Positions 13,243 through 13,770 of a stretch of 27,634 bases of DNA are shown here, piece after piece (position 1 is the first letter of the stretch; each line of letters starts with the position of its first letter). The notes beneath the pieces are model-generated. The model saw only the letters and a program-made list of their open reading frames with translations, was not told the origin of the DNA and made no database searches. A program made the translations under genes and the position numbers. Source of the DNA: Candidatus Saccharimonadia bacterium (GTDB lineage: Bacteria > Patescibacteriota > Saccharimonadia > Saccharimonadales > Saccharimonadaceae); NCBI GenBank assembly GCA_023257755.1, contig JALRBM010000094.1, positions 1-27,634 on the forward strand, read 5' to 3'.

Positions 13243-13271
13243 TTGACTTTTATTTAGTATTATGTTATATT
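13243..13271 (+). promoter_or_regulatory. Near-consensus sigma70 promoter driving the high-GC cassette
   Basis: TTGACT (13243-13248), 17-bp AT-rich spacer, TG at 13263-13264, TATATT (13266-13271). Predicted TSS about 13278. Confidence 0.8.
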
Positions 13272-13315
13272 TGAAAAATCGCACCTTTAGAGTGCGCGAA
13301 GAGATGAGGTAGCCC

Positions 13316-13648
13316 ATGCTTCCCATGCCCGTCACCGCCCTCCCGGGGAACGCTGAGGCCATGGCCGACTCGGTCAACCTGAGCGAACACCGGGGGCGGG
13401 TGGTCGAGATCGTGACCGCGTCCGGCTCCACCTACTGGGTGGTGCCGCTGGCCACCAGGACCACGTTCCGCCGCCGCGGTGTGACCTGCGTGCGCGGCCT
13501 GTCGATCACCACCAACAGCGAGACGGTCAACCGGTTCCCCACCGACCCCACCGCGCTGGAGGCCGTGAACACCGTCCGCACCGGGCAGCCCTGGCGCTTC
13601 GGCGACAAGGGCACCACCAGCAACGTGCGGTCGGTCCGGGTCCTCTAG
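13316..13648 (+). CDS. Hypothetical 110-aa protein with actinobacterial-type codon usage
   Basis: Hand count: 235 of 333 nt are G/C (~71%) and 106 of 110 sense codons end in G/C. SD GAGGT lies 5 nt before the ATG. The protein looks beta-rich (VVEIVTASGSTYWVV...TTSNVRSVRVL). No family recognised with confidence. Confidence 0.85.
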   Translation: MLPMPVTALPGNAEAMADSVNLSEHRGRVVEIVTASGSTYWVVPLATRTTFRRRGVTCVRGLSITTNSETVNRFPTDPTALEAVNTVRTGQPWRFGDKGTTSNVRSVRVL

Positions 13649-13657
13649 GGGACCTGT

Positions 13658-13695
13658 GGATCCGCCAAGCGACGCGTCTGTCGCTTGGCGGATCC
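13658..13695 (+). other. Perfect 16-bp GC-rich stem-loop with no U-tract
   Basis: GGATCCGCCAAGCGAC-gcgtct-GTCGCTTGGCGGATCC, 9 nt after the ORF stop codon. Confidence 0.85.
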
Positions 13696-13712
13696 CGCCC
13701 CCTCATCTCTTC

Positions 13713-13770
13713 CGTTAGTTCCATAGTTGTATGTACTATGCTGATGAGCTGGAAACAGCGAAAACTAACG
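13713..13770 (+). ncRNA. Type III hammerhead ribozyme; predicted cleavage 3' of C13721
   Basis: Stem III CGTTAGTT (13713-13720) pairs with AACTAACG (13763-13770). Cleavage triplet UUC. Stem I CATAGT/ACTATG with loop TGTATGT. Core CTGATGA (13741-13747). Stem II GCTG-GAAA-CAGC. Core GAAA (13760-13763). All core nucleotides and all three helices are present in the correct order. Confidence 0.9.

Follow-up and report, generated by a model that had tools for sequence, protein, structure and literature searches.

The window analysed here, a stretch of 27,634 nucleotides from a Candidatus Saccharimonadia bacterium (contig JALRBM010000094.1), carries a compact putative transcription unit at positions 13243-13770, in the gap between dnaE and a convergent gene of the SpoU/TrmH family (trmH). 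The unit consists of a promoter, a 5'-terminal hairpin, an open reading frame (ORF) of 110 codons named ORF110, a second hairpin and a hammerhead ribozyme, and a closing helix (the clamp) ties together the sequences on either side of the coding part. The features of the locus are listed below; GC1, GC2 and GC3 denote the G+C fraction at the first, second and third codon position.

13243-13248 and 13266-13271, plus strand: sigma-70-type promoter, TTGACT and TATATT with a 17-nt spacer and an extended -10 TG
13280-13296, plus strand: 5'-terminal hairpin, CGCAC/GUGCG with a 7-nt loop, in both the minimum free energy (MFE) and the centroid fold
13298-13309, plus strand: 5' arm of the closing helix, GAAGAGAUGAGG, complementary to the 3' arm at 12 of 12 positions
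13316-13648, plus strand: coding sequence of the ORF110 family, 110 amino acids (aa), GC1/2/3 of 0.59/0.56/0.96
13658-13695, plus strand: GC-rich 3' hairpin of 16 perfect base pairs, located by a repeat finder
13701-13712, plus strand: 3' arm of the closing helix, CCUCAUCUCUUC, a perfect 12-bp inverted repeat with 13298-13309
13713-13770, plus strand: type III hammerhead ribozyme with core and three helices
13713-13720 paired with 13763-13770, plus strand: hammerhead stem III (8 bp)
13722-13727 paired with 13735-13740, plus strand: hammerhead stem I (6 bp)
13748-13751 paired with 13756-13759, plus strand: hammerhead stem II (4 bp)
9493-13239, plus strand: dnaE (DNA polymerase III alpha), the upstream flank
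13765-14328, minus strand: SpoU/TrmH-family methyltransferase (PF00588, 1e-29), the convergent downstream flank

The promoter, the 5' hairpin, the inverted repeat, the ORF, the 16-bp hairpin and the hammerhead were all found where the original prediction had placed them, and its description of a self-contained, discrete transcription unit is supported as far as sequence can tell. A consensus scan matched the promoter at 10 of 12 consensus positions and counted three promoter-like sites in the region (0.8 expected); the -35 element is kept in a diverged relative (L003). Transcription is predicted to start at about position 13278, and the 5' hairpin begins approximately 2 nt from this predicted 5' end. 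The Shine-Dalgarno (SD) sequence GAGG (13306-13309) is located inside the 5' arm of the closing helix, 6 nt ahead of the ATG. The 16-bp hairpin was considered as an intrinsic terminator and rejected, as it has no U-tract directly behind it (CCGCCCCCUCAUC comes next), and the consensus scan called no intrinsic terminator on the plus strand after this hairpin. The 3' arm touches stem III of the hammerhead with zero unpaired bases between them in the fold, and the last 6 nt of the ribozyme overlap the trmH stop codon on the opposite strand. Folding of the 498-nt precursor gave MFE and centroid structures in which the 5' hairpin, the closing helix, the 16-bp hairpin and the hammerhead junction coexist. 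The z-scores against dinucleotide shuffles were -5.0 for this precursor and -4.6 for the 444-nt product. The folds and the repeat finder agree with a predicted RNA that is approximately 444 nt long, has its ends paired and its SD occluded, and would receive its 3' end from the ribozyme. On the minus strand, ATTTTTC follows the hairpin at 13280-13296, which there receives a terminator-like score and might halt antisense transcription that arrives from the trmH side.

The contrast in composition that had been reported for the unit is real. The promoter and the ribozyme are AT-rich, while the ORF has a G+C content of approximately 70% in a genome of 51%. Along the DNA, the G+C fraction is approximately 0.35-0.48 at 13200-13300, 0.68-0.73 over 13300-13700 and approximately 0.47-0.50 past position 13700. 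The codon positions of the neighbouring dnaE have G+C fractions of 0.58/0.37/0.56.

Such sharp composition boundaries are what an assembly chimera of low-GC and high-GC DNA would produce. However, the identical ORF with its junctions is present on three contigs of other assemblies that stem from other samples, and the cassette sequence occurs in several DNA sequencing runs (estuary and soil metagenomes and one of unstated kind). Diverged orthologs from unrelated samples have the junctions as well. The relative L003 and a congener (G004) carry the cassette between dnaE and trmH with ORFs of equal length that are 79% and 61% identical, respectively, and it is found at dnaE-trmH too in L095/L096 (protein P0004, 42%) and L119 (P0007, 40%). 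The flanks of the orthologous loci carry the Pfam domains PHP and DNA_pol3_alpha. Comparison of the three closest orthologs revealed one compensatory change in the 5' hairpin (G-C to A-U in G004), one compensatory and two one-sided, pair-preserving changes without any break in the closing helix, and five compensatory changes in the 3' hairpin. RNA helices that span both composition boundaries covary, which argues against a chimera. The independent assemblies already refute such a chimera, whose probability is negligible. A small hairpin over the stop codon (13639-13654), pointed out in a neighbouring note, was not conserved in the orthologs, with four broken pairs and no compensatory change.

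The dnaE-trmH loci of relatives were also compared for empty sites, as had been proposed, and such sites exist. In two other genera of the family (G006 and G007), dnaE and trmH lie within approximately 10-50 nt of each other. The junction is variable in further genomes: it contains a gene with a CHAP domain (peptidoglycan hydrolase-like) in G001 and G002, a CHAP gene plus the cassette in L095, the cassette alone in L003, G004, L119 and the genome of the window (G000), and an unrelated small insert of 400 nt in G003.

The catalytic core of the hammerhead is complete, with CUGAUGA at 13741-13747 and GAA at 13760-13762 within GAAA. Its three helices are perfect; stems I and II are closed by loops and stem III is open. 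The A15.1-U16.1 pair is present and U13720 is followed by C13721 as position 17, after which cleavage is predicted. The Rfam model RF00008 (Hammerhead_3, clan CL00010) matched the ribozyme at 13721-13762 with 22.8 bits, compared to a gathering score of 48.5, and the sibling hammerheads in the same genome obtained 23-27 bits. The short stems and loops are unlike those of the Rfam seed. A family-specific covariance model was built from copies of the hammerhead cassettes and gave 79 bits for the cassette hammerhead; it was used instead of a strict regular expression, which missed siblings with a short stem III. No Rfam model matched at its gathering score over the whole window, and the matches beyond the hammerhead at E-values of up to 10 were to miRNA and snoRNA models and were dismissed as chance level. 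A second ribozyme was not found in the unit with Rfam or with the family hammerhead model. In an alignment of 76 hammerhead copies, 98.1% of the pair cells are paired, compared to 30-47% in slid controls, and 351 two-sided changes were counted versus 106 in shuffles; this alignment was fitted to the covariance model and the pairing counts lean towards the model. The catalytic core is nearly invariant among the copies, and position 17 is a C in 58, a U in 12, an A in five and a G in none of them. This pattern corresponds to the NUH rule and argues for selection on cleavage.

The cassette had been framed as a one-off. Instead, the unit at 13243-13770 is one copy of a Saccharibacteria-wide cassette type that is found sporadically more widely in Patescibacteria. 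The covariance model detected a hammerhead in 28 of the 61 genomes of the order, with up to 8 per genome, and in 13 of a phylum-wide sample of 151 genomes, and the components of the architecture co-occur in many genomes, as the search suggested in the original prediction was meant to establish. The genome of the window itself contains two further hammerhead cassettes (contigs C52 and C25), in each of which the hammerhead follows a GC-rich ORF and a long perfect hairpin. An ungapped closing helix with a score of at least 10 was identified at 43 of 74 loci versus 1 of 74 shuffled controls. The best-defined closing helices have a 3' arm that ends 0-3 nt before the hammerhead, and a consensus promoter is located 26-60 nt upstream of the 5' arm in the best-defined sibling cassettes. 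The arm sequences vary between cassettes while their complementarity is kept. When duplex energies were computed, the cognate 5' region was among the best 10% at 31 of 73 loci (approximately 7 expected); this test is noisy, with 1.4-kb search spaces, GC-rich upstream regions and one subfamily with common arms, and it shows an enrichment without a clean separation of cognate from non-cognate regions. In 19 of 21 cassettes, a hairpin occupies the stretch from the predicted start to the 5' arm (mean dG of -10.0 versus -4.2 for shuffles), and the siblings have strong structure before the 3' arm (mean of -37.6 versus -26.8 kcal/mol for shuffles). With the loci aligned at the ribozyme, G+C is elevated by approximately 9 points over the 400 nt that precede the hammerheads. 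The cassettes carry canonical SD leaders. As the helices keep pairing in orthologs and the architecture recurs in many genomes, the unit is more than a chance arrangement.

Several variants of the arrangement were observed. Two hammerheads are present on one locus in L060, L064, L088 and L091. Those of L060 and L064 are 0.77-1.07 kb apart on the same strand and make up tandem cassettes with a unit between two ribozymes, which could in principle release a ligatable monomer. One subfamily of cassettes has the leader type of the C52 sibling and the conserved arm TGACAAGCAGAC in common. Its members L011, L061, L065 and L068 each follow a tRNA gene of the same strand at a distance of approximately 130-200 nt, and no promoter of their own was found for L011 and L068. 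This placement may reflect transcription together with the tRNA, or the tRNA gene could act as a hotspot for insertions.

A portable element or phage-type 'moron', in the form of a mobile promoter-to-ribozyme module that inserts at gene junctions, would fit the presence, absence and alternative cargo observed at the dnaE-trmH junction. It would also fit the presence of this protein family, within a common RNA frame, at the unrelated loci L094 and L115, and the conserved-arm subfamily with its four copies adjoining tRNA genes. Hammerheads reported from bacteria, often from prophages, adjoin small ORFs that are not conserved (PMC3088659, PMC6155905). However, no second copy of the 13243-13770 cassette is present in the genome, and no recombinase, target-site duplication or terminal DNA repeat was seen at the cassette borders. 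The flanks are housekeeping genes and not prophage genes, and the dnaE-trmH cassette is orthologous down to 40% protein identity, which indicates long vertical residence. Such a mobile module, which is compatible with the explanation favoured below, is possible but rather doubtful.

ORF110 is a real gene that belongs to a rare, fast-evolving family of approximately 100-118 aa, so far seen in metagenomes only. The orthologs keep the length of 110 codons and the positions of start and stop. The G+C content is specific to the reading frame, with the listed values of 0.59/0.56/0.96, and this is retained in the orthologs. Amino acid replacements are conservative only in frame 0 (mean BLOSUM62 scores of -0.6 to 0.0 versus -1.0 to -1.8 in the other frames). 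An exhaustive profile search of 1.84 billion representative proteins yielded 25 matches, mostly of 98-118 aa and with motifs in common, all of which came from metagenomes and none of which had an informative name. The long matches P0006, P0012 and P0025 were discarded as spurious (Big_6 Ig-repeat or PQQ beta-propeller proteins), as was P0005, an 864-aa protein matched in multiple stretches in which only DUF6403 was recognised. The AlphaFold2 model of ORF110 is all-beta with a predicted local distance difference test score of 89.6, and the product is predicted to be soluble and to lack a hydrophobic segment. No sequence match for ORF110 was obtained in Pfam, PHROGs or PDB and no structural neighbour of the model was found.

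Nine genomic contexts of the family were compiled. All of them have flanks of approximately 50% GC and five are the dnaE-trmH junction. The neighbours in several contexts include pilins and DUF5652, kinds of genes that are known from candidate phyla radiation genomes. It had been asked whether the ORF varies while its frame is conserved, and homologs with only 26-42% identity (P0003, P0004, P0007 and P0019) are indeed embedded in the same RNA frame of promoter, 5' hairpin, clamp, GC-rich hairpin and hammerhead; two other ORF110 homologs retain the clamp without the ribozyme. The finding of homologs down to 26% identity in the same frame suggests that gene and RNA frame have been travelling together for a long time. 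The GC3 of the homologs is 0.71-0.92.

One measure seemed at odds with a protein-coding function, as the naive ratio of nonsynonymous to synonymous changes (dN/dS) of the ORF is 0.8-1.0. Together with the fold z-scores of -4.6 to -5.0 and the readiness with which long open frames arise in GC-rich sequence, this value would suit a spurious ORF whose GC-rich core is a structured non-coding RNA. The standard dN/dS was nevertheless rejected as uninformative or misleading here, since third positions are constrained to G or C, and it was replaced by codon-position, change-type and frame-specific BLOSUM tests. The proportion of synonymous differences is 0.17-0.33 for the ORF versus 0.76-0.92 for dnaE of the same genomes, in which synonymous sites are saturated. 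Third-position changes in the ORF are dominated by C<->G exchanges (11/16, 23/33 and 26/35), and the apparent dS is low because of this restriction to G or C. A non-coding RNA is further contradicted by the frame-specific G+C, the conserved length, start and stop positions, the conservative replacements in frame 0 only, and the 25-protein family with common motifs and a confident predicted fold; it is considered very unlikely.

The GC3 bias of ORF110 has outlasted the saturation of synonymous sites in dnaE and is for this reason regarded as a maintained trait of the cassette and not as a relic of gene transfer. Over the cassette family, the GC3 of the cassette ORFs averages 0.73 versus 0.52 for flanking genes and is higher in 26 of 30 loci, although these loci are related and the test statistic overstates their independence. 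The individual cassettes range from 0.34 to 0.97. The genome of the window has a median GC3 of 0.56 in a crude gene set, and no more than about 20 of the 870 ORFs have 0.75 or above. These approximately 20 GC3-rich ORFs (0.75-0.98; L099-L114) were noted on contigs C4, C27, C29, C39, C40, C50 and C70 and on contigs C73, C76, C77, C89, C92, C116 and C117. Most of the units have their own TTGACA/TATAAT promoter, a 5' untranslated region that is complementary to the 3' untranslated region, and a GC-rich hairpin. Most of them close with a U-tract terminator and not with a ribozyme, and almost none has a Pfam match (two weak matches among 17 GC3-rich ORFs other than those of the hammerhead cassettes). 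The high GC content of the coding part thus appears to be a selected property of the cassette RNA or of the gene. RNA compaction, avoidance of an AU-directed nuclease or a translational reason would fit as its cause.

The original prediction said that the ORF region looks actinobacterial; the inference that the ORF is hence derived from or tuned to the host is not supported. A recent horizontal acquisition of an actinobacterial (host) gene between native signals would explain an ORF of approximately 70% G+C and a GC3 of 0.96 in a genome of 51% G+C, and look-alike clusters identified with a language model are mostly labelled Actinomycetota (score of 0.89, at the level of a lead only). Yet no actinobacterial homolog was detected by the profile search among the 1.84 billion representative proteins, and the nine contexts, with flanks of approximately 50% GC and neighbours that resemble those beside the cassette of the window, like pilins and DUF5652, do not suit such an origin. 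The same junction harbours orthologs with as little as 40% identity, and GC3 was kept, with C<->G changes dominating, while the synonymous sites of dnaE became saturated. A recent actinobacterial transfer is already contradicted by these sequence comparisons and is highly improbable.

The best explanation, which we hold at a probability of roughly 0.6, is a lineage-wide single-gene expression cassette that would work as an end-clamped, ribozyme-matured mRNA unit. The consensus sigma-70 promoter would fire at about position 13278 and the transcript would begin with the 5'-terminal hairpin. The 12-nt 5' arm, including the SD, would then pair with the 3' arm that is set directly against the type III hammerhead, and the coding gene ORF110 and the very stable GC hairpin would be enclosed between the two arms. 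Hammerhead cleavage leaves a 2',3'-cyclic phosphate, and the cut after C13721 would free an mRNA of approximately 444 nt with such an end and a 9-nt 3' tail beyond the clamp. The cut would also disconnect the mRNA from read-through into the antisense trmH. A 5'-terminal hairpin, a clamp and a stable 3' hairpin are features that block 5'-end-dependent and 3'-exonucleolytic decay, and translation initiation should be damped by the location of the SD inside the clamp. The frame therefore most likely yields a discrete, nuclease-resistant and translation-damped mRNA. Its purpose may be the terminator-free formation of a 3' end and insulation from neighbouring genes, as well as the shielding of both ends from exonucleases. 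The anatomy, its conservation and covariation, the recurrence, the coding status of the ORF and the maintained GC3 are observed, whereas self-cleavage in vivo, transcript stability, translational damping and the activity of the protein are inferred.

The type I toxin mRNAs of the hok/Sok and aapA1/IsoA1 systems use fold-back inhibition between their 5' and 3' parts, and long-distance 5'-3' pairing is a hallmark of mRNAs of the hok and aapA1 type. Similarly, the mRNA ends of the cassette pair in a 12-bp helix that encloses the translation initiation region including the SD and would make the RNA compact, stable and poorly translated, and many sibling ORFs encode small hydrophobic proteins. The unit could on these grounds be a fold-back-silenced toxin-type mRNA, with an inert full-length RNA that is activated by 3' processing or refolding. 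However, ORF110 is not a short hydrophobic toxin peptide but a protein of 110 aa that is predicted to be soluble and all-beta, and cargo sizes in the family reach 354 aa. In contrast to the toxin systems, neither an antisense RNA nor a promoter for one was found on the minus strand inside 13243-13770 (consensus scan only). In addition, the 3' end of the cassette RNA would be made by the ribozyme, and the predicted cut leaves the clamp intact instead of removing it. The occlusion of the SD is not conserved over the cassette family. A toxin mRNA of this type is therefore unlikely.

Several points weigh against the end-clamped expression cassette as well. The Rfam hammerhead model scores the ribozyme of the cassette below its gathering threshold, and a clear ungapped closing helix was found at no more than about half of the hammerhead loci. 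Nor is the SD occluded throughout the family, as the start codon is located 2 to more than 100 nt past the 5' arm elsewhere. The start site, cleavage, abundance and stability of the transcript enter the explanation as predictions. A role in stability and insulation alone leaves the GC3 of 0.96 unexplained.

The cargo of the sibling cassettes is diverse and mostly orphan, with many small membrane proteins. Pfam recognised 3 of 29 hammerhead-cassette ORFs (Tad4, Band_7 and a phosphodiesterase domain). The Tad4 match is found in the sibling cassette on contig C52 (approximately 6179-7322, minus strand; L011:1667-2596:-), which encodes a 310-aa protein with a GC3 of 0.93; residues 188-295 match Tad4 with 6e-23, above the curated cut-off. 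Tad4 is a phage anti-Thoeris inhibitor of the TIR protein ThsB (PMC13728456). No TIR_2 or ThsB_TIR gene was found in the genome of the window, which is 89% complete. Tad4 was rejected as a general cargo, as only 2 of 201 genomes of the order carry it, and the Tad4-like sibling is a single intriguing case and not a pattern.

The sibling bears on the proposal of a trans-acting mRNA effector, in which an RNA made and matured by the epibiont is delivered to, and translated in, a high-GC actinobacterial host, with GC-rich codons tuned to the tRNAs of that host. In such a host-directed system, the end-clamped, GC-rich mRNAs would themselves cross into the host. The actively held GC3 against resident codon usage would agree with it, as would an RNA that is predicted to be discrete and nuclease-resistant and the canonical SD leaders of the cassettes. 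A cassette with a Tad4-like domain in a genome in which no TIR/ThsB target was found points in the same direction, given that phage Tad4 proteins act on the TIR immunity protein ThsB of another organism (PMC13728456). On the other hand, bacteria are not known to have a mechanism for such an RNA export. The GC enrichment is uneven among cassettes (GC3 of 0.34-0.97), and selection on RNA structure or nuclease avoidance would predict GC-rich codons just as well. Many cassette ORFs encode membrane proteins that look like parts of the epibiont's own envelope. Delivery to the host could just as well take place at the protein level, and no result obtained here requires the effector model, which is regarded as highly improbable. 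In a weaker host-directed form, the mRNAs would be stockpiled for the stage of host contact, with a cargo that includes counter-immunity proteins like the Tad4-like sibling.

Bacterial hammerheads have been described beside small non-conserved ORFs, often in prophages and with an unknown role (Perreault et al. 2011, PMC3088659; de la Pena et al. 2017, PMC6155905). The end-clamped cassette agrees with these cases in that a genuine hammerhead adjoins a small orphan gene and is presumed to process a single-gene mRNA. In contrast to the prophage examples, it is located at a housekeeping junction in the chromosome of a Saccharibacteria-type genome. It further differs from the published bacterial hammerheads by a single, 3'-only ribozyme per unit, its own consensus promoter, the 5' hairpin, a covarying closing helix set against stem III, and GC3-rich cargo. 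These added features were not found described in the hammerhead literature, and a literature search for papers that link hammerheads with Saccharibacteria or Patescibacteria, or that report this architecture in them, found none, in accordance with the earlier belief that it is undescribed.

Synthetic insulators such as RiboJ and transcripts flanked by hammerhead or hepatitis delta virus ribozymes give context-independent transcript ends. In the cassette, a self-cleaving ribozyme would likewise set a defined transcript end, but unlike these insulators it is natural, conserved, placed at the 3' end and accompanied by an end clamp. Type III hammerheads are also used by plant retrozymes and by viroid-like circular RNAs (PMC6155905). 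While those have two flanking ribozymes, which release a ligatable monomer with 5'-OH and 2',3'-cyclic phosphate ends, the cassette has one ribozyme and a predicted triphosphate 5' end that derives from the promoter. An integron gene cassette was considered and rejected on account of the own promoter, the perfect hairpin without the imperfect structure of an attC site, and the single unit between housekeeping genes in place of an array; no integrase search was made.

The name of the RAGATH motifs, reported by Weinberg et al. in 2015, stands for RNAs Associated with Genes Associated with Twister and Hammerhead ribozymes. Like these structured RNAs in hammerhead neighbourhoods, the leader of the C52 sibling cassette (C52:7191-7267, minus strand; L118) resembles RAGATH-10 (RF03147) in a sub-threshold match of 33.6 bits, compared to a gathering score of 41.2 bits. 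This was the sole RAGATH-10 match in the genome. The cassette of the window did not match RAGATH-10 at the gathering score or at E-values of up to 10, and its leader consists of only a 17-nt hairpin plus the arm.

Only the general link of bacterial hammerheads with small ORFs is thus already known. The complete frame with its own promoter, 5' hairpin and covarying clamp against stem III is new, and so are the abundance of such units at housekeeping junctions of Saccharibacteria chromosomes and the long-maintained GC3 excess of their cargo. The role of bacterial hammerheads is a long-standing open question (PMC6155905), and the cassette provides a compact natural case with testable parts. As the ribozyme is set against a covarying helix that ties the ends together and the unit has its own promoter, roles in 3'-end formation, insulation and stability can be addressed by simple mutagenesis. 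The frame can be seen as a natural design for discrete, stable transcripts. In these ultrasmall epibiotic bacteria, the cassettes also single out a separate class of orphan genes that evolve fast and whose GC-rich codons were kept for a long time against the bias of the genome, which is not predicted by ordinary amelioration theory. RNA structure, nuclease avoidance, a special translation regime and a host-directed function are candidate explanations, and finding the cause of the GC bias could reveal new ways in which these bacteria handle RNA or deal with their hosts.

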